Source: Nonlabens ponticola
Lineage (GTDB): Bacteria > Bacteroidota > Bacteroidia > Flavobacteriales > Flavobacteriaceae
Direction of reading: 5' to 3'
Length of the DNA stretch: 32,000 nt
Assembly (NCBI RefSeq): GCF_003966335.1
Contig: NZ_CP034549.1
Coordinates: 2,010,001-2,042,000 of the forward strand
Shown here: piece after piece, positions 2,020-31,708 of the stretch
Layout of the letters: the number at the start of each line of letters is the position of its first letter
Position numbering within the stretch: the stretch's first letter is position 1
Notes under the pieces: model-generated
What the model was told of the DNA's origin: nothing
The model's input: only the letters and a program-made list of their open reading frames with translations
Databases searched by the model: none
Program-made: the position numbers and the translations under genes

Positions 2020-2766
2020 ATGACGCGAGTTTTTATAATAGGTACAGGCAATCTAGGCAGGCAATTGATCACGCGCTTTCAACAAGCCATGAAGACTGAT
2101 ATTGAGCTAGTAGGTTATCGCAATTTATCAGGCGAGAAACTGCCCACGGTAAGCGCGCCGCTGAGCATGGAATCCATTCCTACATGCGACCTCATTATTC
2201 TAGCTGTGCCAGATGATCGCATAAGCTCTATCAGCGATTCACTAGACAATCCCAACGTGACCATCGCCCACACTAGTGGTAGCGTTTCCATTGCAGCTTT
2301 AAATCGTCACGAGAGACGTGGCGTGCTTTACATACCACAAACTTTCAGTAAACATAGATCGGTAGATTTATCTCAAGTAACAATTTGCCTAGAAGCTAGT
2401 AACGATAATGTTATGAAGCAGTTAGAGATGGTTTCTGTTACGCTTTCGCGAAAGCTAACACACATCAATTCTCATCAACGTAAAAAGCTACATCTTGCTG
2501 CCGTTTACATGAACAATTTTGTCAATCATTGTTATACCAAAGCTGCTGAAATCGCTCAGGAATCTGCCATCGATCAAGAATTATTATATCCATTGATGGA
2601 GGAAACCATGCTCAAGGCGCAGGAACTGGGCGCGTCAAATGCGCAATCAGGTCCAGCCATGCGAGGCGATAAAGATACCATTGCCAGACAATTAGAGCAG
2701 TTACCAGAAGAGGATCGTGCCATGTACGAGGCTATCACACAATCAATCAAACATACTCATGGATAA
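2020..2766 (+). CDS. Rossmann-like / DUF2520 domain protein
   Basis: N-terminal dinucleotide-binding motif VFIIGTGNLG. The C-terminal part (HLAAVYMNNFVNH ... SGPAMRGD) is typical of DUF2520. I prefer ATG 2020 (MTRVFIIG) over the track start at 1981. Contains palindrome copy 1. Confidence 0.7.
   Translation: MTRVFIIGTGNLGRQLITRFQQAMKTDIELVGYRNLSGEKLPTVSAPLSMESIPTCDLIILAVPDDRISSISDSLDNPNVTIAHTSGSVSIAALNRHERRGVLYIPQTFSKHRSVDLSQVTICLEASNDNVMKQLEMVSVTLSRKLTHINSHQRKKLHLAAVYMNNFVNHCYTKAAEIAQESAIDQELLYPLMEETMLKAQELGASNAQSGPAMRGDKDTIARQLEQLPEEDRAMYEAITQSIKHTHG
2442..2455. repeat. GCTTTCGCGAAAGC palindrome, copy 1 (perfect; extended TGTTAcGCTTTCGCGAAAGCTAACA at 2436..2460)
   Basis: Read directly. Lies inside the DUF2520 CDS and is translated as L-S-R-K-L-T. 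Confidence 0.95.
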
Positions 2767-3289
2767 AAATTATAAGGAATTATTGCATCAGATCAAGGCT
2801 TTCGTTTTTGACGTGGATGGTGTACTTACTGATGGTCGCCTACTCATTTCAGAAAGTGGTGAACTGTTGCGCACGATGAATGCCAAGGATGGCTATGCCA
2901 TGAAAACTGCACTCAACAATGGCTACAAGGTTTGCATTATTACTGGTGGTAAGAATGAAGGTGTAAAATCAAGACTGGTAGGTCTTGGTGTGACTGATGT
3001 TTTTTTAAATGCTAACGATAAGATCATCCAGCTGGAGCAATACATGAAAAAACATGGTTTGCAGGCTCATGAGATTCTATACATGGGTGACGATATGCCG
3101 GATATTCCCGTGATGCAGGAAGTTGGTCTGGCCTGCTGCCCGCAAGATGCTATTCCCGAAGTTAAAGCCGTAAGTCATTACATATCCCACAAACATGGTG
3201 GTGATGCCTGTGTACGTGATGTCATTGAACAAGTCATGAAAGTCCATAAAAAATGGAACAATGACGCGATAAACGCTGCAAGTTCTTGA
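2759..3289 (+). CDS. kdsC: 3-deoxy-D-manno-octulosonate 8-phosphate phosphatase (HAD family, KdsC)
   Basis: HAD motifs FVFDVDGVLTDG and YMGDDMPD, with a KdsC-like size of 176 aa from MDKNYKELL. ATG 2759 overlaps the upstream stop by 8 nt. Confidence 0.8.
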   Translation: MDKNYKELLHQIKAFVFDVDGVLTDGRLLISESGELLRTMNAKDGYAMKTALNNGYKVCIITGGKNEGVKSRLVGLGVTDVFLNANDKIIQLEQYMKKHGLQAHEILYMGDDMPDIPVMQEVGLACCPQDAIPEVKAVSHYISHKHGGDACVRDVIEQVMKVHKKWNNDAINAASS

Positions 3290-4185
3290 AATATCTTAAT
3301 CTAATAAGATGGCCCAATGTGTTGATGACGCTCATCACACAAGTCATCATATTGTATTGGTTTTTACCTGAGTCCAATGCAGATTTAACCTTGGCACTCT
3401 GGCAACAACTAGTAATTATATTTTCCACGTGCTGCATTGTTGCCGCAGGAAACGTGATAAATGACATCTATGATGCCGATGTGGATCGCATCAACAAACC
3501 TGATCAAGTAATTGTAGGTAGATTGCTATCCATAAAAAGTTCTAACAGGTTATATATAGGACTTACGTTTACCGCTGTCGTTGGTGGTTTTGTAGTTGCC
3601 AATAGCATTGACCGTGCTGGTATGGCGAGTATTTTTATCGTGGTTTCCTTCCTGTTATATTATTATGCAACGACATTAAAAAAACAACTGGTCATAGGCA
3701 ATGTTGTGATCTCATTGCTTGTAGGACTCGTAATGCTCCTTACTGCTGTAGTTGAATTATATCCAGCATTAAATGACGCTAACCAATCTGAGCAAGGAAA
3801 AGTACTGTTGCTATTAACAGGATTTGCTGTACTGGCATTTTTTGTCAATTTATTGCGCGAATGGATCAAGGATGCTCAAGATATTAATGGAGATCTTGCT
3901 GGTGGACGTAGCTCTTTGCCACTGGTTTTAGGAAAACAACGCGCCTGCAGAGTGATGGCAGTGTACACCTTAACCCTAGCCGCTGTCCTAGCCTATTGGT
4001 TTACAAACATTTTTTACCAATTGTCAAACACCTTTTATTATTCTCTTTTTGCGATCATTGCACCGCTTATGTATATAGGAATACGCTTGTGGAATGTCGA
4101 GAATGATAAAGAATTAAAAATCCTATCCTTAGTATGCAAGCTGGTATTATTAGCAGGGATCGTTTTGATAGGCTTATCACAATAA
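3286..4185 (+). CDS. UbiA-family prenyltransferase (polytopic membrane protein)
   Basis: Asp-rich motifs NVINDIYDADVDRINKP and KDAQDINGD, with about 8 hydrophobic helices. TTG start at 3286 overlaps the kdsC stop (TTGA). Confidence 0.75.
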   Translation: MKYLNLIRWPNVLMTLITQVIILYWFLPESNADLTLALWQQLVIIFSTCCIVAAGNVINDIYDADVDRINKPDQVIVGRLLSIKSSNRLYIGLTFTAVVGGFVVANSIDRAGMASIFIVVSFLLYYYATTLKKQLVIGNVVISLLVGLVMLLTAVVELYPALNDANQSEQGKVLLLLTGFAVLAFFVNLLREWIKDAQDINGDLAGGRSSLPLVLGKQRACRVMAVYTLTLAAVLAYWFTNIFYQLSNTFYYSLFAIIAPLMYIGIRLWNVENDKELKILSLVCKLVLLAGIVLIGLSQ

Positions 4186-4188
4186 ATT

Positions 4189-4773: not shown

Positions 4774-4775
4774 AT

Positions 4776-5379: not shown

Positions 5380-5413
5380 ACTCCTATTTAAAAACTGTCC
5401 ATTTCTATTCCAC

Positions 5414-6037: not shown

Positions 6038-7063
6038 ATGAATGAAGAAATGATTATTGGCGTTAAGCAATTGCTTGAAACACCCAAGAAAATAGTAATA
6101 GTGCCACATAAAAGTCCTGATGGCGATGCCATTGGTTCTATAACCGCACTTTATTCTTATCTCAATAAATTGGGTCACGAGACGACCATGATTTCACCTA
6201 ACGATTACCCAAAATTTTTAAGCTGGCTTGATCATACCGATAAGATCATCAATTTTGAAAAGCAAAATAGCCAAGCTTTAACTGCCATCGATGAAGCACA
6301 AATCATTTTTATTCTAGATCATAATGCGTTGCACCGTGCCGGCGATATGGAACAACAACTCACTGCAAGTGATGCTACTTTTGTAATGATTGATCATCAT
6401 CAACAACCAGATGATTTTGCACGATTCATGTACAGTGATACTAGCATGAGCAGTACGTGCGAGATGGTATATCATTTTTTAGATCAGCTAGATGCACTAG
6501 ATCTTATTGATCAAGGAATGGCGACCAGTTTATATACAGGAATACTGACAGATACTGGCAGTTTCAAGTATAGGTCTACCACTTCTACAACATTGCGAGT
6601 AGCTGCAAACCTTGTGGATAAAGGTGCCGATAGCGAGAAGATCAACCGCCGTATCTATGATGTCAACTCTCCATCGCGTATGAAGCTTCTTGGAGTTGCG
6701 CTTAGCAACCTAATCATTTTGCCAGAGTATCGTGCGGCATTCATCACTTTGACGCAACAAGAGCTTGATGATAACAACTTTGAAAAAGGCGATACTGAAG
6801 GTTTTGTAAATTATGCATTGAGTCTTGATGACATAGTATTTGCACAGATATTTATTGAGAAAGCAGACGAGAGCATGATAAAAACATCATTGCGTTCTAA
6901 AGGTGATTTTGATGTCAACAAAATGGCTCGTGAGCACTGGAATGGTGGTGGTCACAAGAATGCCGCTGGTGGTAGGTCAGAGGCCAGCATGCAAGAAACA
7001 GTAGATAAATTAATTAGTATATTGCCGCAGTATGAGAGCGATCTTAAAAGCACCATTATATAA
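6038..7063 (+). CDS. nrnA: DHH/DHHA1 phosphoesterase (NrnA-like oligoribonuclease / pAp phosphatase)
   Basis: HKSPDGDAIGS, MIDHHQ (DHH motif) and GGGHKNAAGG (DHHA1 motif). I prefer ATG 6038 (MNEEMIIG) over the TTG at 5999. Confidence 0.75.
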   Translation: MNEEMIIGVKQLLETPKKIVIVPHKSPDGDAIGSITALYSYLNKLGHETTMISPNDYPKFLSWLDHTDKIINFEKQNSQALTAIDEAQIIFILDHNALHRAGDMEQQLTASDATFVMIDHHQQPDDFARFMYSDTSMSSTCEMVYHFLDQLDALDLIDQGMATSLYTGILTDTGSFKYRSTTSTTLRVAANLVDKGADSEKINRRIYDVNSPSRMKLLGVALSNLIILPEYRAAFITLTQQELDDNNFEKGDTEGFVNYALSLDDIVFAQIFIEKADESMIKTSLRSKGDFDVNKMAREHWNGGGHKNAAGGRSEASMQETVDKLISILPQYESDLKSTII

Positions 7064-7583
7064 AATTACACTATTGGCAACGCTCGCTATGGCCAGCAGT
7101 TGTAAGAATCTGGAGGCTCGCGAGGCCATCAGTACTCGCACCAGTACAACAACTGATTTTTCGATAGAACGCAACAAGGAACTTTACGCAGCTCAAGAAG
7201 CACAAATTGAAGAAATAATTGCTGCAGATTCCCTAGATTATCAGCGGTCTGCCAGCGGATTTTATTACACCTTTATAAAACAGGATAGTATCATCACAGA
7301 TCGTGCAAAATATGGCGATCGTGTCACCATTGAGTACAATATATCAAGTATTGACAACCAGCCCATTTACACGACCAGCGAGTTGTCACCACTCACTAAA
7401 AGTCTAGAACAAGAATACGGCATATTTAAAGGCCTGCGAGAAGGTCTCAAACTCATGCAGGAAAATGATGAGGCCATATTTTATTTTCCATCCTATGCAG
7501 CCTACGGCTTCTACGGCGATCAGGACCGCATAGGCATCAACACACCTATACGCAGCCGTGTTAAATTGCTTAAAATTGAGTAA
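7032..7583 (+). CDS. gldI: FKBP-type peptidyl-prolyl isomerase lipoprotein, possibly the gliding-motility protein GldI
   Basis: Signal peptide plus lipobox (LLATLAMASSC). FKBP-like C-terminal part (GDRVTIEYN ... GLREGLKLMQENDEAIFYFPSYAAYGFYGD). The size (183 aa) and position next to other PPIase genes fit flavobacterial GldI. The symbol is tentative. Overlaps the nrnA 3' end by 32 nt. Confidence 0.55.
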   Translation: MRAILKAPLYKITLLATLAMASSCKNLEAREAISTRTSTTTDFSIERNKELYAAQEAQIEEIIAADSLDYQRSASGFYYTFIKQDSIITDRAKYGDRVTIEYNISSIDNQPIYTTSELSPLTKSLEQEYGIFKGLREGLKLMQENDEAIFYFPSYAAYGFYGDQDRIGINTPIRSRVKLLKIE

Positions 7584-7602: not shown

Positions 7603-7616
7603 GCTTTCGCGAAAGC
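7603..7616. repeat. GCTTTCGCGAAAGC palindrome, copy 2 (perfect; the only intergenic copy)
   Basis: Read directly. It lies 20 nt after the gldI-like stop and 44 nt before ATG 7660. The reverse complement of 7603..7621 (GTTACGCTTTCGCGAAAGC) equals 2437..2455. Confidence 0.95.
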
Positions 7617-7659: not shown

Positions 7660-8820
7660 ATGAGAAAAATTCACGGATTATTGCTGATCCTAGCTGTCAT
7701 TCTAACCGCATCGTCTTGTGAAGACAAATACAAGGATGCCAACGACGGTATCTATGCTGAAATCAATACGAGCAAAGGAACCATGTTTGCCAAATTATAT
7801 CACGAGGCAGCACCAGCAACGGTTGCCAACTTTGTTGCACTGGCCGAAGGTGAACATCCACTGGTAGCAGACTCATTAAAAGGAAAACCATTCTACAATG
7901 GTTTGATCTTTCATCGAGTAATTGAAGACTTTATGATTCAAGGTGGTGATATCACCGGTACAGGATCAGGAAACATAGGTTATAAATTTGATCAGGAAAT
8001 CAACGATACGCTTAATCACGATGCCAAGGGAATCTTATCCATGGCCAATGCAGGTCCTAATACTAACGGTTCTCAATTCTTCATCATGCATAAAGAACGT
8101 CCACAGTTGGATGGTCGTTACAACGTGTTTGGAAAGGTGATGGAAGGTCTTGAGGTAATAGATTCTATAGCAACCGTTACTACTGATGGTCGCGATAGAC
8201 CACTAGATAGCATTGTTATCAATGAGATTAATATTATACGCAAAGGAAAAGCTGCCAGAAAATGGGATGCCCCTAAAGTATTCAAAGAACAAAAAGAAAA
8301 GGCAGAGCAAAAAGCTGAAGAAGAAAGAAGAATTGCTACTGAGCGTCGTGAGCGAGCGCCAGCGGTACGCAAAGCAAAAGCGGAAGAGCTTGCAGCGCTG
8401 GAGAAAAAAGCTAAAGAACTTCCTGGTGGCGTTAAAATCTACACTATAGAAAAAGGTACTGGCGGTAGACCTGCAGATAAGACTAGGGTCATGATTAATT
8501 ACAGCGGCTTTTTTGAAGACGGTAGACTGTTTGATTCGAGCTACCTAACCGTTGCCCAGGACTTTGATAACGTTGATCCTCGCAAGTTGAGCGGTAAAGC
8601 CTATCGTCCTATGCCAGTAATTTTTGATCCAGCAGCAGGAATGGTTCAAGGTTTTAAGGACGCTATGTTGAGTATGGAATACGGCGATAAGATTGTTGCA
8701 TATATACCATCTGATCTTGCCTATGGTGAGCGCGGTGCCGGTAATGTTATCCCACCTAACAGTGATTTAATTTTTGAAATGGAGATGATGGAGCCTGTAG
8801 AGATTGAAGCAGAAGACTAG
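7660..8820 (+). CDS. dual-domain peptidyl-prolyl isomerase lipoprotein: N-terminal cyclophilin domain, K/E-rich linker, C-terminal FKBP domain
   Basis: Lipoprotein signal LLILAVILTASSC. Cyclophilin motifs FHRVIEDFMIQGGD and SMANAGPNTNGSQFFI. Charged linker KEQKEKAEQKAEEERRIATERRERAPAVRKAKAEE. FKBP motifs NYSGFFEDGRLFDSS and AYIPSDLAYGERGAGNVIPPNSDLIFEMEM. Confidence 0.85.
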   Translation: MRKIHGLLLILAVILTASSCEDKYKDANDGIYAEINTSKGTMFAKLYHEAAPATVANFVALAEGEHPLVADSLKGKPFYNGLIFHRVIEDFMIQGGDITGTGSGNIGYKFDQEINDTLNHDAKGILSMANAGPNTNGSQFFIMHKERPQLDGRYNVFGKVMEGLEVIDSIATVTTDGRDRPLDSIVINEINIIRKGKAARKWDAPKVFKEQKEKAEQKAEEERRIATERRERAPAVRKAKAEELAALEKKAKELPGGVKIYTIEKGTGGRPADKTRVMINYSGFFEDGRLFDSSYLTVAQDFDNVDPRKLSGKAYRPMPVIFDPAAGMVQGFKDAMLSMEYGDKIVAYIPSDLAYGERGAGNVIPPNSDLIFEMEMMEPVEIEAED

Positions 8821-12271: not shown

Positions 12272-13144
12272 ATGACAACCATCAATATAGGCGGCGTTCC
12301 AGAACATTTTAATTTGCCATGGCATTTGGCTATTGAGGATTCCGCTTTCGCGAAAGCGGGCATCAATCTATCATGGCAGGACGTACCAGAAGGTACAGGT
12401 AGAATGTGTAATCTTTTACGAGAATCAGAGCTCGATGTAGCCTGTATCCTTACCGACGGTATTGTAAAAGACATTATGGCTGGCAATCCAGCTAAAATCA
12501 TTCAAGTTTATGTGGACTCTCCATTACTTTGGGGCGTCCACGCACCAGCAGACTTGATTGAAGAAGATACCGCGCAATTTGACAACCCAACATTTGCCAT
12601 AAGTAGATATGGTAGTGGTTCGCACTTGATGAGTTTTTTATTAGCTGCCAGACACAAATGGAATCCTGAAAAATTAAGGTTTAAACTGGTAAATACCATT
12701 GACGGCGCAGTCACTGCATTGACAAATCACGAGGCACAACTCTTTTTATGGGAACGTTACATGACCCAACCGCTGGTAGATAATGGCACCTTTAAAAGAA
12801 TGCAAACGGTGGCAACGCCATGGCCCAGTTTTGTCATCGCAGCTACGGACAAATGCATCGCAGACAAGCAGGACGCTCTTGCCAAAATGCTTAGTATAAT
12901 CAACAACTATACTGCTGATTTTAAAGAGATACCAAGCATTGACCGCACAATCGCTTCACATTATGATTTACAGGTAGGCGACGTTCAACAATGGTTACTG
13001 CGTACAGAGTTTAGCGATAAACAGCTACAAGAAAAAACGGTGAACATCATCAACGAGCAATTTTTAAAAGTTGGAATATCTGATAAGAAAGTTGCCTTGA
13101 AAGATCTAGTTTTTGATCTTCCTAAAATTGACGAAGAAGAATAA
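12272..13144 (+). CDS. cytoplasmic periplasmic-binding-protein-fold protein (SsuA/THI5/Ca3427-like), function unknown
   Basis: The N-terminus INIGGVPEHFNLPW resembles PBP type-2 substrate-binding proteins of the NMT1/THI5 kind. No signal peptide. Low-confidence family call from memory. Contains palindrome copy 3. Confidence 0.45.
   Translation: MTTINIGGVPEHFNLPWHLAIEDSAFAKAGINLSWQDVPEGTGRMCNLLRESELDVACILTDGIVKDIMAGNPAKIIQVYVDSPLLWGVHAPADLIEEDTAQFDNPTFAISRYGSGSHLMSFLLAARHKWNPEKLRFKLVNTIDGAVTALTNHEAQLFLWERYMTQPLVDNGTFKRMQTVATPWPSFVIAATDKCIADKQDALAKMLSIINNYTADFKEIPSIDRTIASHYDLQVGDVQQWLLRTEFSDKQLQEKTVNIINEQFLKVGISDKKVALKDLVFDLPKIDEEE
12344..12357. repeat. GCTTTCGCGAAAGC palindrome, copy 3 (perfect; 18-bp perfect palindrome CCGCTTTCGCGAAAGCGG at 12342..12359)
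   Basis: Read directly. Translated as D-S-A-F-A-K-A-G in the plus-strand CDS. Confidence 0.95.
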
Positions 13145-13810: not shown

Positions 13811-13925
13811 TCAGTCGCTTTATAATTACAAGCCTTGAATTTACTAGAAAGGCTCGTTCCATAGGATTAAAAAAACTATAACATCAAGAACATACTGCAG
13901 TGGCTTAATTATTTTTGTGTGGCAC

Positions 13926-16088
13926 ATGAGAAAAATATCACGCAAGACCACTGAAGATCTTGAATTTAATACAGTAATTGATCAGGCGAGCGCCTATTGC
14001 GTCACAGACGATGGTCGAGATCTTTTAAAAAAGCTACAACCATTTGCTTCTAGCAATAAAGTCCTGCGATCACTGGATTTTACTCATGAATACCTGCAGT
14101 CATTCTCATCAGACTACTCCATTCCTAATCATGGATTTGACCCTATTGATAAAGAACTACAGCTGCTGGGCATTGATAACAGCACGTTGGAAAAGGAATC
14201 TATACGCAGGCTGGTTCAACTGCCTAGAACGGTAAACGATCACATCAAATTTTTTAAGAAAACTCGAGAGCATTTTGAGCGTTTGTATGAGCGCACGACA
14301 AATCTTGAGTATAACACCGCAGTTCCAGATCAGGTAGATCAGGTCATGGATCGATTTGGCGAGATAAAGGATGATGCATCACCCATTCTCAAAGATGTAC
14401 GCAGGCAAATGAATACGGTGCGTGGCGAGCTTAACGGTAGCTTTGGCGCTGCTTTATCTCATTATCTCAAACTTGATTATCTGGACGATATCAGAGAAAC
14501 AGTGGTAGATAATCGTCGCGTTCTCGCTGTAAAATCTATGCATAGACGCAAAGTAAAGGGTAAGATTATGGGCAGCTCAAAAACCGGTAGCATCTCATAC
14601 ATTGAGCCAGAGCGCGTGTTAAAGCTTTCGCGAAAGCTAACAGAATTAGAGATTGAGGAGCACGAGGAAATTCAACGTATCCTTAAAGAGTTAACCAATT
14701 TCCTGAGGTTATTCATCCCAAAATTTGAACAGCAACGCAGCTACCTAGCAGAGACCGACACCATTGCTGCCAAAGCGAAATATGCACGCAAAATCAATGC
14801 GCTGCTACCTATAATGGTACAACATAAAGAATTAGAATTAGTTGATGCCTATCACCCATTGTTGCTTATTGCCAATCGTGAGCGAGATGAAAAGACCTAC
14901 CCGCAAACCATACGATTAGATGTCGACAATAGAATCATCGTTATTTCTGGACCTAATGCTGGTGGTAAATCCATCACGCTCAAAACAGTAGGTTTATTGC
15001 AATTAATGATTCAATCAGGAATGTTGATTCCAGTTCATGAGAAAAGTCGAGTTTGTATTTTTAAACAGGTGATGACTGATATAGGAGATAATCAAAGTAT
15101 TGATAATCATTTGAGTACCTACAGTTATCGACTTAAAAACATGCGTGGTTTTCTGCGCAAGGCTGATGATAATACGTTATTTTTAATTGACGAATTTGGA
15201 ACTGGATCAGATCCAGAATTAGGTGGTGCTCTGGCCGAAAGCATGCTGGAAGAATTGTACGCACGCAAGTCCTATGGTATCATCACGACGCATTATACAA
15301 ATCTAAAGATGCTGGCCAACGAGTTGCCAGAAATGAATAATGCTAACATGTTGTTTGACAGCCAATCGTTAGAGCCTATATATCAGTTACAATTGGGTGA
15401 AGCTGGTAGCTCCTTTACATTTGAAGTAGCACAAAAAAACGGTATCCCATTTTCATTGATCAATAAGGCCAAAAAGAAAGTGGAACGTGGCAAAATACGT
15501 TTTGACAAATCAATTGCCGCACTGCAAAAAGAGCGTTCACACCTGCGTAAAAACAATGAATCATTGCGTGAACGCGAGATGAAGGCCACACAAAAAGCTA
15601 ATAAGCTAGACGATACACAGGAACGCATCCAGCAAAAGCTAGAGGATTTTCAAGAGTTGTACGACACGTATCAACGTCATATTCAATTGGGGAAAAAGTT
15701 TGACCAGTTAGCTAGTGATTACAATAAGAACAAGAAAAAACGACAGTTGCTGGATGAACTAATGAAACTTGTCATTACCGAGAATGTCAAACGTCAACCA
15801 CCACCAAAAAAGAAAACGGCTGCAGCCAAAGATAAGGGCAGACAAAAACAGGCTGAAAACGAACTGATCCAAAAGGCAACCAAAATACGTAAGGAAAAAA
15901 AGACGGTAAATAAGCCAGCTATAGAAAACCCTAAACCAAAAGTGAATTTTAAAGTAAATGATCGCGTGCGTTTGATCGATTCACGATCAGTAGGAACTAT
16001 AGACAATATCGAAAAAGGAAAAGCTACCGTGAATTACGGTATGTTTACTACGCTCGTGAGTGTAGAACAATTAGAACCTGTGAAGTAA
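13926..16088 (+). CDS. mutS2: MutS2-family ATPase (MutS domain V, K-rich coiled region, KOW-like C-terminus; no Smr domain seen)
   Basis: Walker A ISGPNAGGKSITLKTVG, Walker B LFLIDEFGTGSDP, and TTHY. The C-terminus is VNDRVRLIDSRSVGTIDNIEKGKATVNYGMFTTLV. I prefer ATG 13926 over GTG 13917. Contains palindrome copy 4. Confidence 0.85.
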   Translation: MRKISRKTTEDLEFNTVIDQASAYCVTDDGRDLLKKLQPFASSNKVLRSLDFTHEYLQSFSSDYSIPNHGFDPIDKELQLLGIDNSTLEKESIRRLVQLPRTVNDHIKFFKKTREHFERLYERTTNLEYNTAVPDQVDQVMDRFGEIKDDASPILKDVRRQMNTVRGELNGSFGAALSHYLKLDYLDDIRETVVDNRRVLAVKSMHRRKVKGKIMGSSKTGSISYIEPERVLKLSRKLTELEIEEHEEIQRILKELTNFLRLFIPKFEQQRSYLAETDTIAAKAKYARKINALLPIMVQHKELELVDAYHPLLLIANRERDEKTYPQTIRLDVDNRIIVISGPNAGGKSITLKTVGLLQLMIQSGMLIPVHEKSRVCIFKQVMTDIGDNQSIDNHLSTYSYRLKNMRGFLRKADDNTLFLIDEFGTGSDPELGGALAESMLEELYARKSYGIITTHYTNLKMLANELPEMNNANMLFDSQSLEPIYQLQLGEAGSSFTFEVAQKNGIPFSLINKAKKKVERGKIRFDKSIAALQKERSHLRKNNESLREREMKATQKANKLDDTQERIQQKLEDFQELYDTYQRHIQLGKKFDQLASDYNKNKKKRQLLDELMKLVITENVKRQPPPKKKTAAAKDKGRQKQAENELIQKATKIRKEKKTVNKPAIENPKPKVNFKVNDRVRLIDSRSVGTIDNIEKGKATVNYGMFTTLVSVEQLEPVK
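14624..14637. repeat. GCTTTCGCGAAAGC palindrome, copy 4 (perfect; 16-bp AGCTTTCGCGAAAGCT at 14623..14638)
   Basis: Read directly. GCTTTCGCGAAAGCTAACA (14624..14642) is identical to 2442..2460 and is again read as L-S-R-K-L-T. Confidence 0.95.
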
Positions 16089-19073: not shown

Positions 19074-21089
19074 TTAAATAAGTCCGTTATATTTTCTTAG
19101 AATCCACTCTAAAGCTAGTAAGATAAGGATAAAGATCAAGAGAACACGCCAATCTATCAATGATTCAAAGCTGGTTTGCTCGCGTTGAATGGTAGATAAT
19201 AAACTGTCATTTTTTAAAGTACTTTTTAACTCACTTATTTGATCCGGTGTGAATACTATACCGTTAGTAGCAATTGAACGCAAGTCCTTATAGTTAGCAC
19301 TCACAAATTGACTCTCAATATCAAATTCCAACACTTTAAAAGAACCAGATTTGCGCAGATTGCTTGATTGCACAGAAGTTGTAAAATTATACGATCCTGG
19401 CGCGAGTCCAGATAAATCAACCGTATAGTCGATACCTCTAGAAATAAACGGTCGCTGTGATCGCTCACCCGTTTCCTTGTTCTCAATATACAAGTCAAGA
19501 ACAGCGTCATCTCGCTCCTCAAAATTTTCATCAAGGTATGTCGCCATCAATAGTATACGATCATTTTCATAGTAGAACCGCTCATAATCCACCTCTAACC
19601 TATCGCGTTTATCGTCGCTGGATAAAAACTGGATCTGTGAACTTACTAGATCATCAAATTCCTGAAAATTTGCATCGCGCAAGTAAGCCTCGCTGCGCCA
19701 GCGCCATAACCCAGAGCCCATAGTTACTGCATGTTTGGAATCTACCTCATTGTAAGTGAACCACAATGGCTGTTGGGTTTCTACGGCACCTATCTTTTTA
19801 TAAAATAGAACGTCAATATTTCCAAAGGCACTAACCTCGCCAAAAGGAACCTGCAATGGTGGGAAATCCGCAAGATCAAAACGTTCCAAATTAAAACTTT
19901 GGTAGTTTTGATTCATCACCGGTTGCACCTCGTCTTTTTGTGCATAAACCTCGGCAGTGAAAATTTCTTGTGATCGATTCAAGTACCTTAGATCAGGTTT
20001 TGGACCGACGATAGTCCAGGTATTTTTGTTGAGATTTTTGATGGCTGTTTCAGCTTTCGCGAAAGCGGAACCAACACCATACTTCACAACTAGATCATAT
20101 TCGGAAATTACAAATGGCTCATCTACAGTTTTGATCGTGGCACGGCGAAATTTATTGGACTCAATAGATTTTTTTAGCGCTGCCAAATCAGGATGCAAAT
20201 ATTCCGCTAGAATCAAAATTTGTGATTGTTGATCGATGACTTCAACAGCAAAATTGCGATTGTTGTTTGCTGTATTCTTCTCTTGAGAAATAGTGCTGAT
20301 GCTGGCCGTGTAGGATTGCACACCTATATCAGTACTCTTAAGTAGAATACTTTGCACCGACGCCCTATTATTGCTGTCGAAACTAACAGGAATACTCTTG
20401 AGTCGTTTGCCGTCTTGATTAATAGTAAGGCTTATATTTACAGGTATTTCTCCTGAATATGAAACAAGGATTTCTACAGGAAACTCGTTATCTAAATAGG
20501 AGAATTTATTGACATTAATTTGAGTAATCTTGATGTCTGCGTAGCTTGTGGTGTCGCCATAAACTACTGAATACAGGTGCGTATTCTTATCTAGAACGGT
20601 GTATTTATAACTACTACCTATGGTTTGATTACCATCTGTCATCATGACGATGGCTTTATTGCGACTTGCATTAAGACGCTGGACTTTTGTAATTGCATTA
20701 TCCAGATCCGTTTGATCCTGATTAAAGGATAGACTATCGGCTAGTGTGATGTCATCACCCATCTTATAAAGAGATACGTCATAATCATCTAGCCATTCTT
20801 GATCGTTCATTAATACCTGCAAATCCTGATCAATTAGTGCACTAGCTCCCAACTTTTCTATCGATCTAGAATCATCTACTACGATAGCCATTTGCGGCTT
20901 GACGTCAGTGTAGGTTGTTGATTCAAACTGTGGTGCAAGCAATAATAATAGAATAGAAAAAACCGTGATTGCTCTTAAAACAGCAAACCACGGTTGTTTT
21001 TTCTTATTAGATTTTACTAAAAAACCATACTGGAACAATGCAATAAGAACAGCAACTATGGCTGCTAGAATGATCCAGATGTAAGTCAT
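19074..21089 (-). CDS. large membrane protein with N-terminal vWA domain (MIDAS DDSRS) and C-terminal TM anchor
   Basis: Two N-terminal TM helices. vWA motifs MAIVVDDSRS and AIVMMTDGNQT. C-terminal TM VLLIFILILLALEWIL. Contains palindrome copy 5. Confidence 0.6.
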   Translation of the reverse strand: MTYIWIILAAIVAVLIALFQYGFLVKSNKKKQPWFAVLRAITVFSILLLLLAPQFESTTYTDVKPQMAIVVDDSRSIEKLGASALIDQDLQVLMNDQEWLDDYDVSLYKMGDDITLADSLSFNQDQTDLDNAITKVQRLNASRNKAIVMMTDGNQTIGSSYKYTVLDKNTHLYSVVYGDTTSYADIKITQINVNKFSYLDNEFPVEILVSYSGEIPVNISLTINQDGKRLKSIPVSFDSNNRASVQSILLKSTDIGVQSYTASISTISQEKNTANNNRNFAVEVIDQQSQILILAEYLHPDLAALKKSIESNKFRRATIKTVDEPFVISEYDLVVKYGVGSAFAKAETAIKNLNKNTWTIVGPKPDLRYLNRSQEIFTAEVYAQKDEVQPVMNQNYQSFNLERFDLADFPPLQVPFGEVSAFGNIDVLFYKKIGAVETQQPLWFTYNEVDSKHAVTMGSGLWRWRSEAYLRDANFQEFDDLVSSQIQFLSSDDKRDRLEVDYERFYYENDRILLMATYLDENFEERDDAVLDLYIENKETGERSQRPFISRGIDYTVDLSGLAPGSYNFTTSVQSSNLRKSGSFKVLEFDIESQFVSANYKDLRSIATNGIVFTPDQISELKSTLKNDSLLSTIQREQTSFESLIDWRVLLIFILILLALEWILRKYNGLI
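20053..20066. repeat. GCTTTCGCGAAAGC palindrome, copy 5 (perfect)
   Basis: Read directly. On the coding (minus) strand it reads GGT TCC GCT TTC GCG AAA GCT GAA, i.e. G-S-A-F-A-K-A-E. Confidence 0.95.
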
Positions 21090-21101
21090 ATAGAGATTGA
21101 A

Positions 21102-21848
21102 TTAGGTAAGCATACCACCATCAACATGTAACGTTTGACCTGTTACATAAGTACTCAAGTCACTTGCAAGAAAGGCACAAGCATTAGCTACATCTTCAGG
21201 ACTACCGCCACGTTTCAGTGGTATAGCATCTCTCCAACTTTGAACTGTCTCATCGTTAAGAGCACCTGTCATCTCTGTTTCAATAAATCCTGGTGCGATT
21301 GAGTTACAACGTATGTTTCGAGATCCTAGTTCTAATGCAACAGACTTAGTAAAACCAATAATTCCAGCCTTACTTGCGGCATAATTTGTTTGCCCTGCAT
21401 TTCCCTTAACACCAACGATGCTACTCATATTTATGATGCTACCACTGCGTTGTTTGAGCATGGTGCGTTGCACAGCCTTTGTCATATTGAAGACTGACTT
21501 TAAGTTCACTTCAATTACCTTGTCAAAGTCCTCTTCACTTATTCTCATAAGCAAGTTATCCTTTGTAATACCAGCATTATTAATGAGCACATCGATGCTA
21601 TCAAAATCCTTAGTCACTTGAGCGATTAAATCTTGAGACTCTTGAAAACTTGACGCATCACTCTTGTAACAGTGAGCCTTGACGCCCATATCTTGGAGCT
21701 CTTTTTCAAGTTCCTTGGCTGGCTGTTCAGAACTGCTGTAGGTAAATGCAACATTTGCTCCATGTTGCGCAAAGACTTGTGCTATTCCTTTACCTATACC
21801 ACGACTTGCGCCTGTTATAATGACATTCTTACCTTCTAGTAGCTTCAT
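21102..21848 (-). CDS. fabG: 3-oxoacyl-[acyl-carrier-protein] reductase
   Basis: ITGASRGIGKGIA, NNAG and the catalytic YAASKAG. Length 248 aa. Confidence 0.9.
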   Translation of the reverse strand: MKLLEGKNVIITGASRGIGKGIAQVFAQHGANVAFTYSSSEQPAKELEKELQDMGVKAHCYKSDASSFQESQDLIAQVTKDFDSIDVLINNAGITKDNLLMRISEEDFDKVIEVNLKSVFNMTKAVQRTMLKQRSGSIINMSSIVGVKGNAGQTNYAASKAGIIGFTKSVALELGSRNIRCNSIAPGFIETEMTGALNDETVQSWRDAIPLKRGGSPEDVANACAFLASDLSTYVTGQTLHVDGGMLT

Positions 21849-23753: not shown

Positions 23754-24710
23754 TTAGGCTTCCTTTTCCTTAGTTTGTAATTCTTTTAATTGAGCCATCA
23801 TTTCTGGTATTTTCTTGATGGATGCTATTTCCTTGTATTTGGATCTAAAATCATCTGCTGGTATACCAAAGTATCTCTTATTTGCCTCCAATGACTTGCT
23901 AACACCTGCCTTAGCCGATATCACTGCCTTACTGCCGATAGTAATACCGCTGGTGATTCCTACTTGACCCCAAATAGTTACTTCATCTTGTACCACAACA
24001 CAGCCAGCAATACCTACCTGACTAGCGATGAGCACGTGTTTACCAATAATGGTATCATGACCTATCTGGACTTGATTATCCAGCTTTGAACCATATTCTA
24101 TGGTAGTATCGCCAGTGACGCCGCGATCGATGGTACACAGCGCACCTATCTCAACATTGTCTTCAATAACAACACGACCACCACTCAATAATTTGTCGTA
24201 TCCATCTGGCCTGCGCTTATAGTAAAAAGCGTCTGCACCTAGGACTGTTCCCGAATGAATAATCACATTATTGCCAATGACGCTTCCGTTATTGATGGAA
24301 ACATTGCTGTGAATCACACAATTATCGCCAATCACGACGTCATTTGCAATGAAGACATTAGGTTGTACCACAGTATTTTGTCCTATGGTGTATTTGGGTT
24401 GTTCCGCTTTCGCGAAAGCTGAAAAAGGATTAAAGTATTGTGTTAAACGATTGAAATCCCTAAACGGGTCATCGCTTATTAACAAGGCTTTTCCAGAAGG
24501 ACACTCTACCTGTTTATTGATCAAAATCACTGTCGCAGCACTTTCTAGGGCCTTATCGTAATATTTAGGATGATCAACAAATACGATGTCTCCAGGCGTT
24601 ACCACGTGAATCTCGTTCATGCCTTTTACAGGAAATGATTCATCGCCTACATAAGTGCAGTCGATGATTTGAGCGATTTGCGCTAGTGTATGAGTTATCT
24701 TGAATTTCAA
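23754..24710 (-). CDS. lpxD: UDP-3-O-acylglucosamine N-acyltransferase paralog (second LpxD)
   Basis: LpxD-like N-terminal domain (MKFKITHTLAQIAQII, alignable with [12 protein letters not shown] of the other copy) followed by left-handed beta-helix hexapeptide repeats. TTG start 1 nt after the efp stop. Contains palindrome copy 6. Confidence 0.8.
   Translation of the reverse strand: MKFKITHTLAQIAQIIDCTYVGDESFPVKGMNEIHVVTPGDIVFVDHPKYYDKALESAATVILINKQVECPSGKALLISDDPFRDFNRLTQYFNPFSAFAKAEQPKYTIGQNTVVQPNVFIANDVVIGDNCVIHSNVSINNGSVIGNNVIIHSGTVLGADAFYYKRRPDGYDKLLSGGRVVIEDNVEIGALCTIDRGVTGDTTIEYGSKLDNQVQIGHDTIIGKHVLIASQVGIAGCVVVQDEVTIWGQVGITSGITIGSKAVISAKAGVSKSLEANKRYFGIPADDFRSKYKEIASIKKIPEMMAQLKELQTKEKEA
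24406..24419. repeat. GCTTTCGCGAAAGC palindrome, copy 6 (perfect)
   Basis: Read directly. GTTCCGCTTTCGCGAAAGCTGAAA (24401..24424) equals the reverse complement of 20048..20071. The coding strand reads F-S-A-F-A-K-A-E. Confidence 0.95.
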
Positions 24711-25278: not shown

Positions 25279-25281
25279 ATG

Positions 25282-28490: not shown

Positions 28491-28513
28491 TGAAACAAAA
28501 GTAAGGATTTAAA

Positions 28514-29719
28514 TCAATCTTGATTTTTGGGATAGCAATAGTAATGTTTTGAAACACTTTGTCCCAATGCTTTAAAGCTAGGTTCTTTACTAGCCCTTAA
28601 AAACTCTTTGATCTTTCCTGTTTTGGTAAGGATTTTTATGGGTTTCGCTTTCGCGTAAGCGGTATTATCAACCACACCGCTAAACACAAAATAAGCAGCC
28701 TCGTGAGTACTGAAGTTGTACGCCGTCATTAATTTCTCAATCTTACTATTGATTTTTTTATTCGAAATCTCAGTTTTTGAAAACTTGATTTTAAGCAATT
28801 GTCGATTCAATATCATGGTGCACAATTCACGCAGGACATGATCATCATTTTGCATATTAGCTTTGAGCAAGTGGATGATATCGCTGTCGTCAATTAAAGC
28901 AAATTGCTTTAAACTAAATTCCTGATGTCCAAAAAACGGTTTGAGCGTCATAGGAATATGAACTTCGTGCTCTAGCTGCACCAGTTCGTGCACTCGTTTG
29001 ATGACTGACTGCAGTAAATGTTCTGCTCCTATTCCCGTTTTATGTAAATAGACTTGCCAGTACATCAAACGACGGCCTGACAGGAAGTTCTCAACGCTAT
29101 ACAGGGCTTTTTCCTCTACCACTAGTTGGTCATCAACAACGTTGAGCATACTGATGAGTCGCTGGCTGTTGATATTACCTTCTGCAACACCTGTATAAAA
29201 ACTATCTCGCTTTAAGTAATCTAATCGATCAATATCCAGCTGGCTTGAAATGAGCTCCAGCATGAACGGTCGATGATACTCACCTTTAAATATTTGAATT
29301 GCTAGGGTTAAACTCCCGTTAAAAAGGTCGTTCAACTCTTCCATATATAGGAGCGATATTTCCTCGTGGCTTTTGCTTGAAACCAGCAGATTTTCCAGCG
29401 CATGGCTAAATGGCCCGTGACCTATATCGTGTAATAAAATAGCCTTATACAATGCGTCCTCTTCACTTGCAGATATTTCAACCGCCTTGCTTCTAAGTAC
29501 TTGAACCGCTTTTTGCATTAAGTGTAAACAGCCTAGAGCATGATGAAATCGTGTATGGTGTGCTCCAGGATACACCAGATAACTCAAGCCCATTTGAGTG
29601 ATGCGACGCAACCGCTGGAAGTATGGATGCTCGATCAATCTATAGATCTCATCGCTTGGGATTGAAATAAACCCGTAGATGGGATCGTTTAATATTTTAA
29701 GTTTGTTGGGCTGTTTCAA
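28514..29719 (-). CDS. HD-domain phosphohydrolase (dNTPase/SAMHD1-like superfamily)
   Basis: ILNDPIYGFI, HHTRFHHALG, LLHDIGHGPFSH and DRLDYLKRD motifs. TTG start at 29719, with an in-frame TAG two codons upstream. Contains degenerate palindrome copy 7. Confidence 0.8.
   Translation of the reverse strand: MKQPNKLKILNDPIYGFISIPSDEIYRLIEHPYFQRLRRITQMGLSYLVYPGAHHTRFHHALGCLHLMQKAVQVLRSKAVEISASEEDALYKAILLHDIGHGPFSHALENLLVSSKSHEEISLLYMEELNDLFNGSLTLAIQIFKGEYHRPFMLELISSQLDIDRLDYLKRDSFYTGVAEGNINSQRLISMLNVVDDQLVVEEKALYSVENFLSGRRLMYWQVYLHKTGIGAEHLLQSVIKRVHELVQLEHEVHIPMTLKPFFGHQEFSLKQFALIDDSDIIHLLKANMQNDDHVLRELCTMILNRQLLKIKFSKTEISNKKINSKIEKLMTAYNFSTHEAAYFVFSGVVDNTAYAKAKPIKILTKTGKIKEFLRASKEPSFKALGQSVSKHYYCYPKNQD
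28647..28660. repeat. degenerate palindrome copy 7: GCTTTCGCGtAAGC (1 mismatch)
   Basis: Read directly. The coding (minus) strand reads ACC GCT TAC GCG AAA GCG AAA, i.e. T-A-Y-A-K-A-K. Confidence 0.7.
29698..29705 (+). promoter_or_regulatory. candidate -7 promoter box TAAGTTTG (TAnnTTTG) for porX, located inside the divergent HD gene
   Basis: Read directly. The G of the box lies 43 nt upstream of ATG 29748. Confidence 0.3.
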
Positions 29720-29735
29720 ACGCTACAGTTTTAAT

Positions 29736-29743
29736 CAAAGATA
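29736..29743 (-). promoter_or_regulatory. candidate -7 promoter box TATCTTTG (TAnnTTTG) for the HD-lpx operon
   Basis: The plus strand reads CAAAGATA, the same octamer as at 1952..1959. The G of the box lies 17 nt upstream of the TTG start at 29719, and the box sits 5 nt from the porX ATG. Confidence 0.4.
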
Positions 29744-29747
29744 CTAT

Positions 29748-31298
29748 ATGGCTGCAATCAAAATATTATGGGTAGATGATGAAGTTGATCTACTCAAACC
29801 GCACATCATTTTTTTAGAATCCAAGGGTTATTCCATCGACACCAGAATCTCAGGAAGTGAGGCTCTTGAGGCGATTGATGAAGAGTTATACGACATAGTT
29901 CTTCTGGATGAAAATATGCCAGGTATCACTGGTCTTGAAACTTTGCATGAAATCAAGGAAAAACAAGCTAATCTTCCAGTCATCATGATTACCAAAAGTG
30001 AGGAAGAATACATCATGGAAGAAGCCATAGGTTCAAAGATTGCCGATTATCTGATTAAACCGGTGAACCCTAATCAAATTTTGCTTTCTCTCAAAAAGAA
30101 TCTGGATCATTCAAGACTAGTGAATGCAAAGACCACTAGTGATTACCAGCGAGAATTCCGTAAGATAGCAATGGATTTGTCGATGATCAATAGTTATGAT
30201 GAATGGGTGCAGCTGTATCAAAAGTTGCTCTTTTGGGAACTTGAACTAGAAGATATTGACGACACAGGAATGTTTGAAATATTGACGGCTCAAAAAACAG
30301 AGGCCAATCAACAATTCTGCAAATTTATTGATCGCAATTATTCCGGCTGGTTTGACGATGAAGAAGACGCGCCTACCTTGAGTCATACTTTATTTAAACA
30401 AAGGGTTGCACCACATCTTAAAGAGAAACAACCTGTGTTACTAGTCGTTATTGATAATTTAAGGTATGATCAATTCAAGGCGTTTGAAAATATCATCAAT
30501 AATCATTACAAGAAAGTTGAAGAGGATCCATACTGTTCTATTTTACCTACGGCAACACAGTATGCGCGCAATGCCATATTCTCTGGACTCATGCCGGCAG
30601 ATATGGAAAAAAGACATCCTAATTTGTGGCTCAACGATACCGATGAAGGTGGTAAGAATATGCACGAGAACGAGTTCCTAGAAGCGCAGCTCAAACGATT
30701 AGGGTTAAACATCAACCATCAATATCATAAGATTACCAATGAGAGCAGTGGCCGCAAGCTAGCGGAGAATTTCAAAACTCAAAAGGATAATGATCTCACG
30801 GTGATCGTTTATAATTTTGTGGATATGTTATCACATTCTAAAACCGAGATGGAAGTCATCAAGGATCTTGCAAGCACTGATAAATCCTATAGGTCTCTTA
30901 CCGTTAGTTGGTTCAAGAACTCGCCATTGTTAGAAATGATACAGCGCGGTCAAGAAATGGGCATGAAACTCATACTTACAACCGATCACGGTACGATCAA
31001 CGTATCGCAACCTAGTAAGGTGGTTGGCGACAAGAACACAAGTTTGAATCTGCGTTATAAGACCGGTCGCAGCTTGAGTTATGAAGACAAAGACGTGGTT
31101 GCCGCAACAGACCCGGCAACTATTAAGCTACCTAAGATCAATATGAGCAGTAGCTTCATATTTGCCAAGGGTGATCTATTCTTTGCCTATCCCAACAACT
31201 ATAACCATTATGTAAGCTATTATCGCAATACTTATCAACATGGTGGTGTCTCGTTAGAAGAAATGCTTATTCCCTACGCGGTTTTTACTCCTAGATAA
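29748..31298 (+). CDS. porX: response regulator with receiver and PglZ (alkaline-phosphatase-like) domains, PorX type (T9SS regulator)
   Basis: Receiver motifs ILWVDDE, DIVLLDENMPG, VIMITKS and ADYLIKP. C-terminal PglZ-like part ends with LILTTDHGT and QHGGVSLEEMLIP. I prefer ATG 29748 (MAAIKILWVDD) over the track start at 29679. Confidence 0.8.
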   Translation: MAAIKILWVDDEVDLLKPHIIFLESKGYSIDTRISGSEALEAIDEELYDIVLLDENMPGITGLETLHEIKEKQANLPVIMITKSEEEYIMEEAIGSKIADYLIKPVNPNQILLSLKKNLDHSRLVNAKTTSDYQREFRKIAMDLSMINSYDEWVQLYQKLLFWELELEDIDDTGMFEILTAQKTEANQQFCKFIDRNYSGWFDDEEDAPTLSHTLFKQRVAPHLKEKQPVLLVVIDNLRYDQFKAFENIINNHYKKVEEDPYCSILPTATQYARNAIFSGLMPADMEKRHPNLWLNDTDEGGKNMHENEFLEAQLKRLGLNINHQYHKITNESSGRKLAENFKTQKDNDLTVIVYNFVDMLSHSKTEMEVIKDLASTDKSYRSLTVSWFKNSPLLEMIQRGQEMGMKLILTTDHGTINVSQPSKVVGDKNTSLNLRYKTGRSLSYEDKDVVAATDPATIKLPKINMSSSFIFAKGDLFFAYPNNYNHYVSYYRNTYQHGGVSLEEMLIPYAVFTPR

Positions 31299-31708
31299 TG
31301 GAATATACTCTCGATCAGATTGATGAGGCAGCGCAGTATGTTCTTGCTTGCGCGAAAGCTGACACATTATTATTTCCAGCAGAAATGGGAACAGGTAAGA
31401 CAACACTTATCAAGGCTATTTGCAAGCTGGCTGGTGTGCAAGACGAAATCACCTCACCTACGTTTAGTCTTGTGAATGAGTATCAAGCCTCGCGTAACAA
31501 AATTTTCCACTTTGATTTGTACAGAATCAAGTCACTCGATGAACTACACGATATAGGAGTTGAAGATTATTTGGACAGTGCTCATTTAAAACTCGTTGAG
31601 TGGCCAGAGGTTTTGATGCCGCTTCTTACTCGTTATCAGTTAATCGATATGCAAATTATTGATAAAAACAAAAGAGCTGTTCGAGTAAGTGATGTCGTTA
31701 ATCGATAA
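31298..31708 (+). CDS. tsaE: tRNA threonylcarbamoyladenosine biosynthesis ATPase TsaE
   Basis: P-loop EMGTGKTTL, TSPTFSLVNEY and HFDLYR motifs. The start overlaps the porX stop (TAATG). Contains degenerate palindrome copy 8. Confidence 0.9.
   Translation: MEYTLDQIDEAAQYVLACAKADTLLFPAEMGTGKTTLIKAICKLAGVQDEITSPTFSLVNEYQASRNKIFHFDLYRIKSLDELHDIGVEDYLDSAHLKLVEWPEVLMPLLTRYQLIDMQIIDKNKRAVRVSDVVNR
31346..31359. repeat. degenerate palindrome copy 8: GCTTgCGCGAAAGC (1 mismatch)
   Basis: Read directly. Translated as L-A-C-A-K-A-D just upstream of the TsaE P-loop. Confidence 0.65.

Follow-up and report, generated by a model that had tools for sequence, protein, structure and literature searches.

In a 32-kb window of Nonlabens ponticola DNA (the window being the whole stretch analysed here, 32,000 nucleotides), a 14-bp self-complementary sequence, GCTTTCGCGAAAGC, recurs in six exact and two one-mismatch copies. 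The same motif was found at a density of about one copy per 3–5 kb in every sampled Nonlabens and in Dokdonia donghaensis. It is a DNA-level signal, read as a whole palindrome and actively maintained, and it belongs to a known class of sequences, the clade-specific, hyper-abundant DNA tags. By analogy with the DNA uptake sequences (DUS) of Neisseriaceae, the uptake signal sequences (USS) of Pasteurellaceae and the highly iterated palindrome HIP1 of cyanobacteria, we tentatively propose that GCTTTCGCGAAAGC could tag DNA as 'self' in uptake or recombination.

A preliminary description of the window, made from the letters alone, had listed the eight copies together with their host genes. All eight coordinates were correct on recount, and a search at up to two mismatches returned no copy in the window beyond these eight. 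Mapping of open reading frames (ORFs) likewise bore out that seven copies lie in coding sequences on both strands and one, at 7603, in a spacer. Five of the ORF copies read A-[F/Y/C]-A-K-A and two read L-S-R-K-L. Pfam supported the gene labels given earlier for DUF2520, the Ca3427-like PBP, MutS domain V, LpxD/hexapeptide, HD and TsaE; the label of a von Willebrand factor A (vWA) protein found no such support, as this 671-aa ORF has no Pfam family. No flanking sequence common to the window copies was found. Dinucleotide-preserving shuffles of the window yielded an expectation of 0.09 matches to GCTTTCGCGAAAGC at up to two mismatches (largest number in a shuffle, 1). We also applied a codon-aware null, which permutes synonymous codons within the codon pool of the window ORFs and leaves all encoded proteins intact. 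Under this null, 0.013 copies were expected in the window ORFs (shuffle maximum, 1), compared to 5 observed. The over-representation that had been postulated thus holds against a codon-aware background, and it recurs elsewhere in the sampled regions.

Relatives were graded by the identity of their MutS2 protein to that of the window, which is 100% identical to the MutS2 of N. ponticola, and loci were fetched around mutS2. Twelve Nonlabens-group loci, amounting to 263 kb, contained 59 exact copies. The eleven genomes with a MutS2 72–80% identical, which include N. antarcticus, N. tegetincola and N. xiamenensis, exhibited 3–7 exact copies per ~22 kb, with 3 in a single 9.4-kb locus, and relatives at 63–70% identity carried 3–6 copies per 22 kb. 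The loci of N. marinus S1-08 and Nonlabens sp. YIK11 are both syntenic with the window and had exact copies at all five orthologous places, including that of the spacer copy (L264:3659 in N. marinus and L265:3664 in YIK11); the orthologue of this spacer copy has one mismatch in a further relative (L119) and is lost in another (L120). Exact copies were absent from the loci of Aquimarina sp. MMG016, Salinimicrobium marinum and Leeuwenhoekiella parthenopeia (MutS2 59–60% identical) and from five other flavobacterial loci taken from metagenome-assembled genomes (50–54% identical), and no alternative iterated palindrome was detected in the outgroup loci. The clade boundary is sharp, with Nonlabens and Dokdonia carrying the motif and Aquimarina, Leeuwenhoekiella and Salinimicrobium lacking it.

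A metagenome scan with the 16-mer CGCTTTCGCGAAAGCG matched at least 120 stretches. Among the matches listed, 104 marine stretches with 31–45% GC contained at least 171 exact 14-mers in 674 kb, and at least 42 of these 104 carried two or more copies. Since the stretches represent unrelated genomic regions, the motif is not peculiar to the neighbourhood of mutS2. One motif-bearing contig could be assigned to Dokdonia, its TypA being 100% identical to that of 'uncultured Dokdonia sp.' and 96–97% identical to those of D. ponticola and D. donghaensis. Three assemblies encoding a TypA protein that bears the name Dokdonia donghaensis each showed seven exact copies and one one-mismatch copy in 20–22 kb around typA (7 exact copies in 21.8 kb). 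The distribution of the tag therefore covers no fewer than two named genera, Nonlabens and Dokdonia, and its density would extrapolate to roughly 500–1000 copies per genome. A local duplication, which the preliminary description had argued against, does not account for the copies, as the same density was seen in other Nonlabens, in Dokdonia and in the unrelated metagenome regions sampled. In one D. donghaensis locus (L266:11923-18073), four exact copies lie in consecutive polysaccharide-biosynthesis genes, about one per 1.8 kb. The genes concerned encode a DegT aminotransferase, a hexapeptide acetyltransferase, a glycosyltransferase and an ORF without Pfam family; clusters of this kind are usually variable between strains.

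Nested counts in the 263 kb delimited the motif: TCGCGA occurred 102 times, the 8-mer TTCGCGAA 62 times, the 12-mer 62 times, the 14-mer 59 times and the 16-mer 34 times. All 62 of the 8-mers lay within the 12-mer and 59 of them within the 14-mer; outside the motif, TCGCGA had the expected frequency. These counts demonstrate that the specificity extends over 14 bp or more and in part over 16 bp. The 14-bp unit described earlier is part of a fuller unit, the 16-bp palindrome CGCTTTCGCGAAAGCG with compositional arms of ~30 nt. At flank position −1, C was found in 77% of half-sites and G never. Further out, the 5′ flank on each strand had a G+T fraction of 0.60–0.64 and 2–10% C at most positions within 20 nt, a bias reaching to about −30, with T peaks at −3/−4, −7, −10 and −13; these arms were present at coding and non-coding copies alike. 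Isolated half-sites of 7–9 nt showed no enrichment over outgroups (e.g., 28 CGAAAGC outside the motif in 330 kb versus 11 in 153 kb of outgroup DNA), and the whole palindrome is therefore the unit.

Over ~1.07 Mb, we counted 262 exact, 30 one-mismatch and 22 two-mismatch copies. Single mismatches clustered at half-site positions 1 and 5. A T-to-C change at position 5 accounted for 7 of the 30 one-mismatch copies and a G-to-A change at position 1 for 8, both being transitions. The mismatches of the window copies at 28647 and 31346 are each at half-site position 5, i.e., at one of the two most tolerant positions. As a structure, an ssDNA (single-stranded DNA) hairpin would be weak, with −2.1 to −4.3 kcal/mol by the standard nearest-neighbour model, which is not above shuffles. 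The 3′ half of the 14-mer, d(GCGAAAGC), is a sequence that we take to form a very stable DNA mini-hairpin, its special stability lying outside the standard parameters. An extended hairpin via the flanks was considered and rejected: pairing of positions −i and +i was no more frequent than expected from composition, the one exception being position 2 of spacer copies (A..T/T..A). This exception probably reflects species-specific flank preferences, such as that of Dokdonia for TAC...GTA and that of Nonlabens for TCC...GGA or TTC...GAA. No Rfam family matched within the window.

The copies are written by base substitution and nothing is inserted: orthologue alignments at motif sites revealed zero length change. 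At the mutS2 site, CTT TCG CGA AAG CT was identical in nine of twelve Nonlabens-group lineages, while neighbouring synonymous sites varied freely. The remaining lineages had a single mismatch, LSRK with 5 nucleotide differences (L126) and LSRQ with 8 (L123), respectively. In the gene downstream of mutS2, seven lineages carried the motif, encoding AFAK, and the rest had AYIK, AYTK or SYIK at the orthologous site, demonstrating that the motif changes the protein. In these other lineages the protein flanks are only 44–88% identical, and the change from AYIK to AFAK falls at weakly conserved positions. Taken over all orthologous positions, the distribution was bimodal, with 148 exact, 12 one-mismatch, none with 2–4 mismatches and 58 with 5–8 mismatches.

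A five-species alignment of 22 kb gave a measure of how strictly single copies are preserved. At a pairwise nucleotide identity of 0.67–0.74, only 0.14% of its 14-column windows were invariant, and motif sites supplied two of its five longest invariant runs. The copy at 12344 lies within an invariant 16-nt run, CGCTTTCGCGAAAGCG, and the copy at 20053 within an invariant run of 18 nt, GCTTTCGCGAAAGCGGAA, the third longest of the alignment. The remaining three aligned sites were exact in four of the five species; for the copy at 24406, the deviating lineage (L119) has one mismatch. The tag is thus kept letter-perfect against synonymous drift and against protein-sequence preference. Its trace in the proteins was evident from the pentapeptide AFAKA, which occurred 41 times, 40 of them motif-encoded with exactly the codons of the motif, whereas the reverse peptide AKAFA occurred 0 times; AFAKA was also absent from 54,507 outgroup residues. 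The enrichment pattern recurred in the metagenome set, where 60 copies read A-F-A-K-A, 29 F-R-E-S and 22 L-S-R-K-L. A further 59 copies of that set lay outside ORFs of at least 100 aa, corresponding to 35% of copies versus 11.5% of bases. Two near-identical population variants with the same MutS2 protein differed in a single copy, which was exact in one (L257:19855) and had one mismatch in the other (L258:19871). This variable copy is located in a spacer ~230 bp upstream of a phage-integrase-family gene (20088-21314).

The copies are spaced more evenly than chance. In the metagenome stretches, only 6 gaps were shorter than 1 kb, compared to 19.3 expected when the same number of copies was placed at random within the stretch boundaries set by retrieval, and so few were obtained in 0 of 5000 simulations. 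The result was unchanged at thresholds of 1.5 kb and 2 kb and also when one-mismatch copies were included. In the window, gaps measured 2.3–5.4 kb; with one-mismatch copies included, the probability of finding no gap below 2 kb was 0.011. No recurrent reader gene was found beside unusually close pairs of copies.

Phage genomes fell into two groups. The Nonlabens phages P12024S (L255) and P12024L (L256), 35.7 kb each, contained no copy at up to two mismatches versus ~8 expected at host density, where the expectation is based on the sampled clade density and not on the genome of their own host strain. Neither phage has an annotated integrase. In several IMG/VR contigs with portal, head-protease, major-head, terminase and tape-measure genes, by contrast, we found 2–3 exact copies at host-like spacing, some of them inside structural genes. 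Three such contigs from three metagenomes (L089, L114 and L117) shared an identical spacing of 4480 bp. One of the phage contigs bears an IMG genome-style identifier instead of a metagenome one and may be a prophage; the motif-bearing contigs are possibly temperate phages of the motif-bearing clade. The presence of copies in these contigs and their absence from P12024S and P12024L suggest that the tag writer acts on chromosome-resident DNA, and it may spare phages that are merely passing through. TCGCGA was likewise absent from P12024S and P12024L, but avoidance of this hexamer by phage P12024S was rejected, as 0 versus 2.95 expected from shuffles is not significant. Each of the two phages encodes a DNA methyltransferase of its own.

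With these properties, the motif most closely resembles DUS (core GCCGTCTGAA) and USS (cores AAGTGCGGT / ACAAGCGGT). Like them, it is exact and clade-specific, lacks conserved flanks, is located inside unrelated genes with a reading-frame bias, enriches the peptides that it encodes and is in excess in non-coding DNA. Abundance far above expectation in the sampled regions, clade limitation, and the combination of frame bias, peptides and non-coding excess are the very hallmarks of those tags. Orthologous sites are conserved between species in both cases, new sites are too unlike their homologues for simple point mutation, the even spacing is of the order of a recombination tract, and a weaker extended consensus continues past the core, with possible species 'dialects' at flank position −2 in our motif. 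For DUS and USS, a preference for certain reading frames and for weakly conserved residues has been documented, along with the enrichment of peptides (PMC2817400), as has the match between the spacing of uptake sequences and conversion tracts, together with the divergence of new sites from their homologues (PMC2397512).

HIP1 (GCGATCGC) shares other features with the motif. It too is palindromic and extremely abundant, both inside and outside coding sequences; its conservation exceeds what codon usage and peptide selection would impose, its spacing is non-random, and its core contains CG and could be methylated. Its function was long obscure and is now linked to transformation. HIP1 is, however, an 8-mer that an entire phylum shares, while the motif is a 14–16-mer of a clade with at least two named genera, and it is not GCGATCGC or a close octamer variant, since sequence, length and phylum all differ. 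Cognate methyltransferases have been identified for HIP1, and its periodicity is 10–90 kb, whereas neighbouring copies of the motif avoid each other at 1–2 kb. Chi is also over-represented in core DNA at about one per 4–5 kb, sits in a G/T-rich context, is absent from phages and marks self DNA for recombination. It is, however, an oriented motif of 5–8 nt read on ssDNA, in contrast to a 14-bp palindrome with unenriched half-sites. The preliminary description had named HIP1 and DUS/USS as the nearest analogies, a choice supported by the conservation of orthologues at the DNA level, the clade limit and the codon-aware enrichment. Compared to the known tags, the motif is new in its phylum, its much longer and perfectly palindromic core, its compositional arms and its lower density.

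If GCTTTCGCGAAAGC is a self-DNA tag, a clade-specific factor would read it, either as a symmetric dimeric protein on the duplex or by recognising the 14-mer on either single strand, and the tag would mark DNA as 'self' during uptake or recombination. Fragments with a good copy would be preferentially taken up or recombined, and mutations that create or perfect a copy would be over-transmitted through the population, a molecular drive to which selection might add. A second copy near an existing one would contribute nothing, and copies could thereby spread to about one per exchanged fragment (3–5 kb). We rank this reading first because biased uptake or recombination with drive is the only experimentally established process that yields the whole syndrome, and HIP1, likewise palindromic, has recently been proposed as an uptake tag. 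The more specific proposition that the motif is the first 'self' tag in Bacteroidota to guide uptake or recombination in a sequence-specific way, comprising a 16-bp palindrome, G+T-rich arms and a clade-specific reader, is put forward with greater reserve.

Several observations weigh against an uptake tag. The searchable literature gave no indication that Nonlabens or Dokdonia is naturally competent, and Flavobacterium johnsoniae was not transformable in one study. Known uptake sequences such as DUS and USS are shorter, oriented and non-palindromic (9–12 nt) compared to the perfect 14–16-bp palindrome of these Bacteroidota. Characterised uptake sequences are also several times denser, at roughly one per kb, and the motif is ~3–4 times less dense than DUS and USS. 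DUS offers no parallel to its G+T-rich arms, and USS only a loose one, since its flanks are AT-rich. Moreover, the clade limit, conservation, whole-palindrome unit, even spacing and arms are predicted equally well by an array of chromosome-organising sites.

Such an array would consist of hundreds of binding sites for a clade-specific dimer of the nucleoid, condensin-loading or occlusion type, in the manner of Noc-NBS, SlmA-SBS, MatP-matS or ParB-parS, and selection for chromosome folding or segregation would keep strong sites at regular intervals. We regard this chromosome-architecture explanation as unlikely, although it fits the data almost as well as the uptake tag and is the strongest of the competitors. 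Noc NBS (Noc-binding sites, ATTTCCCGGGAAAT), ParB parS (TGTTTCACGTGAAACA), SlmA SBS (SlmA-binding sites) and MatP matS are perfect or near-perfect palindromes of 12–16 bp that can be intragenic and are read by dimers; NBS and parS have TTTC...GAAA arms with a spacing of 4 bp, compared to 2 bp in the motif. A perfect 14–16-bp palindrome that acts as a whole unit, with unenriched half-sites, would be characteristic of a symmetric dimer bound to the duplex. The over-dispersed spacing, the strict conservation of orthologous sites, the symmetric arms reaching ~30 bp past the core, as for a footprint or a DNA-shape preference, and the sharp clade boundary, as from the gain of one protein, all agree with this explanation. 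Nevertheless, known systems of this type comprise tens of sites, often confined to one region, versus the ~500–1000 extrapolated here; selection would need the strength to prevail over protein sequence at hundreds of positions; the array alone would leave the copies in phage head and protease genes unexplained; and no candidate protein has emerged. For HIP1, a role in chromosome structure has been inferred from conservation and periodicity (PMC5861425).

The self-tag reading also has to be weighed against explanations in which the signal is single-stranded, a by-product of repair, or inserted. A site-specific ssDNA nuclease or binding factor might read the 14-mer, with its 3′ half GCGAAAGC as a hairpin, in transformation, repair or replication; it would shape the lengths of recombination tracts, and palindromy would free the signal from the strand that is exposed. 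The model for this idea, which we consider improbable, is provided by the NTS/dRS3 repeats, hundreds of which modulate natural transformation in Neisseria through the GIY-YIG nuclease SsnA, a dedicated reader of the Ssn family (cd10448) with thousands of homologues across phyla (PMC11893778). NTS (CGTCATTCCCGCGMAVGCGGGAATCYRG) and the motif are both repeated and have the GCG-MAV-GC hairpin tip in common (PMC11893778), the per-strand asymmetry of the arms (5′ G+T-rich, 3′ A+C-rich) would suit a strand-specific reader, the tolerant positions 1 and 5 correspond to the terminal pair and the free loop nucleotide of the mini-hairpin, and even spacing would set fragment or tract size. On the other hand, the NTS hairpin measures ~30 nt, its flanks are oriented and not palindromic, and its copies are clustered around particular genes, whereas the copies described here are evenly dispersed and mostly intragenic. 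Isolated GCGAAAGC is unenriched, so that the hairpin alone is not the unit, and the low folding energy given above also argues against it. The published pattern of Ssn-related motifs (SRM), HGTCWYN(0-2)YYVSBRHN(0-5)WNVSBRGN(0-2)RNCYNB, had no match in 396 kb containing 92 copies of the 14-mer, i.e., it was fitted by none of them, and a crude GIY-YIG regular expression applied to the fetched loci alone gave no convincing candidate.

Elhai's idea for HIP1, transferred to our motif, would make the palindrome a functionless by-product of an orphan methyltransferase at CGCG or TCGCGA combined with repair of the very-short-patch type that over-corrects near-cognate sites. The core indeed includes CGCG and TCGCGA, sequences that methyltransferases typically target; for HIP1, two enzymes of this class recognise the palindrome (PMC4390886), and the main single substitutions in our motif are both transitions. 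We nonetheless give this little credence: the specificity is at least 14 bp with TCGCGA at its expected frequency elsewhere, patch repair at one methylated cytosine cannot make sites that are 5–8 positions away from their orthologues, and neither the even spacing nor the 30-nt arms would be predicted. Miniature mobile elements and in-frame insertions, as well as chance, codon usage or peptide selection, are so improbable that we regard them as practically refuted, even though the sequence is palindromic and dispersed and AFAKA-type peptides recur. Repetitive extragenic palindromes and bacterial interspersed mosaic elements (REP/BIME), miniature inverted-repeat transposable elements (MITEs) and Rickettsia palindromic elements (RPEs) are dispersed palindromic repeats as well, and RPEs can sit in frame in genes, but these are insertions of 20–150 bp with hairpin potential, whereas the motif shows no insertion, a weak hairpin and a mostly intragenic location. 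It overlays residues that pre-exist in relatives (LSRKL in L126; AYIK versus AFAK) without length change, and it lacks an Rfam family in the window. The preliminary description had rightly set this sequence-specific palindrome, dispersed over unrelated genes, apart from REP/BIME, terminators, CRISPR and a shared protein domain, as nothing is inserted, no flank is conserved and three frames are used; its looser comparison to in-frame RPEs fails on the first of these points. Further evidence against this group is the use of three reading frames and of spacers, the exact motif codons in 40 of 41 AFAKA, the outcome of synonymous shuffling (0.013 versus 5) and that of the dinucleotide-preserving shuffles (0.09). 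Shuffles, alignments and codon-exact AFAKA together exclude this whole group.

In the searchable literature, GCTTTCGCGAAAGC was not found, TTTCGCGAAA appeared in irrelevant contexts alone, no iterated palindrome or uptake sequence is described for Nonlabens, Dokdonia or Bacteroidota, and neither Nonlabens nor Dokdonia is connected there with palindromes, competence or methylomes. Short motifs that are so abundant and are maintained at the level of the DNA itself are rare. Their mechanism is understood only in Neisseriaceae and Pasteurellaceae, and HIP1 has been a matter of debate for thirty years. An independent third case, in a different phylum, would offer a new system for studying how such tags arise and what reads them, and at a length of 14–16 bp chance copies are negligible. 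Because the on/off boundary between sister genera is sharp, the reader protein should be findable by phylogenetic profiling. If the proposed self tag is real, it would be a palindromic counterpart of DUS and USS, readable on either strand. Should it govern uptake, natural transformation with a preference for own kind would take place in ecologically important marine Flavobacteriaceae, and adding the motif to donor DNA would provide a practical genetics handle in Dokdonia and Nonlabens, which are model organisms for proteorhodopsin and rhodopsin pumps. The tag also has a measurable effect on protein sequences, seen in the AFAKA, LSRKL and FRES peptides, and could be used as a taxon marker in metagenomes.

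The coordinates of the window copies and of motif-bearing phage contigs are compiled in Table 1.

Table 1. Copies of the palindrome in the 32-kb window and phage contigs in which copies were found
Feature	Coordinates	Location	Reading and support
Exact copy	2442..2455	DUF2520 gene (1981-2766, +)	L-S-R-K-L; gene supported by Pfam
Exact copy	7603..7616	Spacer between two FKBP/cyclophilin peptidyl-prolyl isomerase genes (7032-7583, 7660-8820)	
Exact copy	12344..12357	Ca3427-like PBP gene (12272-13144, +)	A-F-A-K-A
Exact copy	14624..14637	mutS2 (13917-16088, +)	L-S-R-K-L; Pfam MutS domain V
Exact copy	20053..20066	Conserved 671-aa ORF (19074-21089, -)	A-F-A-K-A; no Pfam family
Exact copy	24406..24419	lpxD paralogue (23754-24710, -)	A-F-A-K-A; Pfam LpxD/hexapeptide
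One-mismatch copy GCTTTCGCGTAAGC	28647..28660	HD-domain hydrolase gene (28514-29719, -)	A-Y-A-K-A
One-mismatch copy GCTTGCGCGAAAGC	31346..31359	tsaE (31298-31708, +)	A-C-A-K-A
IMG/VR phage contig with copies	L053:3505-4398		
IMG/VR phage contig with copies	L089:5000-8136		
IMG/VR phage contig with copies	L022:4539-8999		
IMG/VR phage contig with copies	L036:12288-13964		

The 671-aa ORF on the minus strand bears one of the most conserved motif copies; its syntenic counterparts in N. marinus and Nonlabens sp. YIK11 likewise lack a Pfam match (E ≤ 0.001). Gene orientation in the window switches once between 1981 and 29719: ORFs from 2 to 18.2 kb are almost all on the plus strand and those from 18.2 to 29.7 kb all on the minus strand, converging, and the GC skew tracks the gene strand. 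The region of N. marinus that is syntenic with the window lies at 2.34 Mb of 2.92 Mb. A repeated 17-mer in one motif-free outgroup locus (L130), considered as a possible outgroup 'dialect' of the palindrome, was rejected as a local tandem repeat. It consists of four head-to-tail copies of a 16-bp unit, AACAGTTCCACGATTA, at L130:2941-3005 and is unrelated to the palindrome, as is a ~12-copy array of the AAAAACTC type with a 7-bp period in a motif-bearing relative (L131). In the motif-free locus of Aquimarina sp. MMG016, a Y1_Tnp transposase gene of the IS200/RAYT type (L261:8071-8526) adjoins mutS2.

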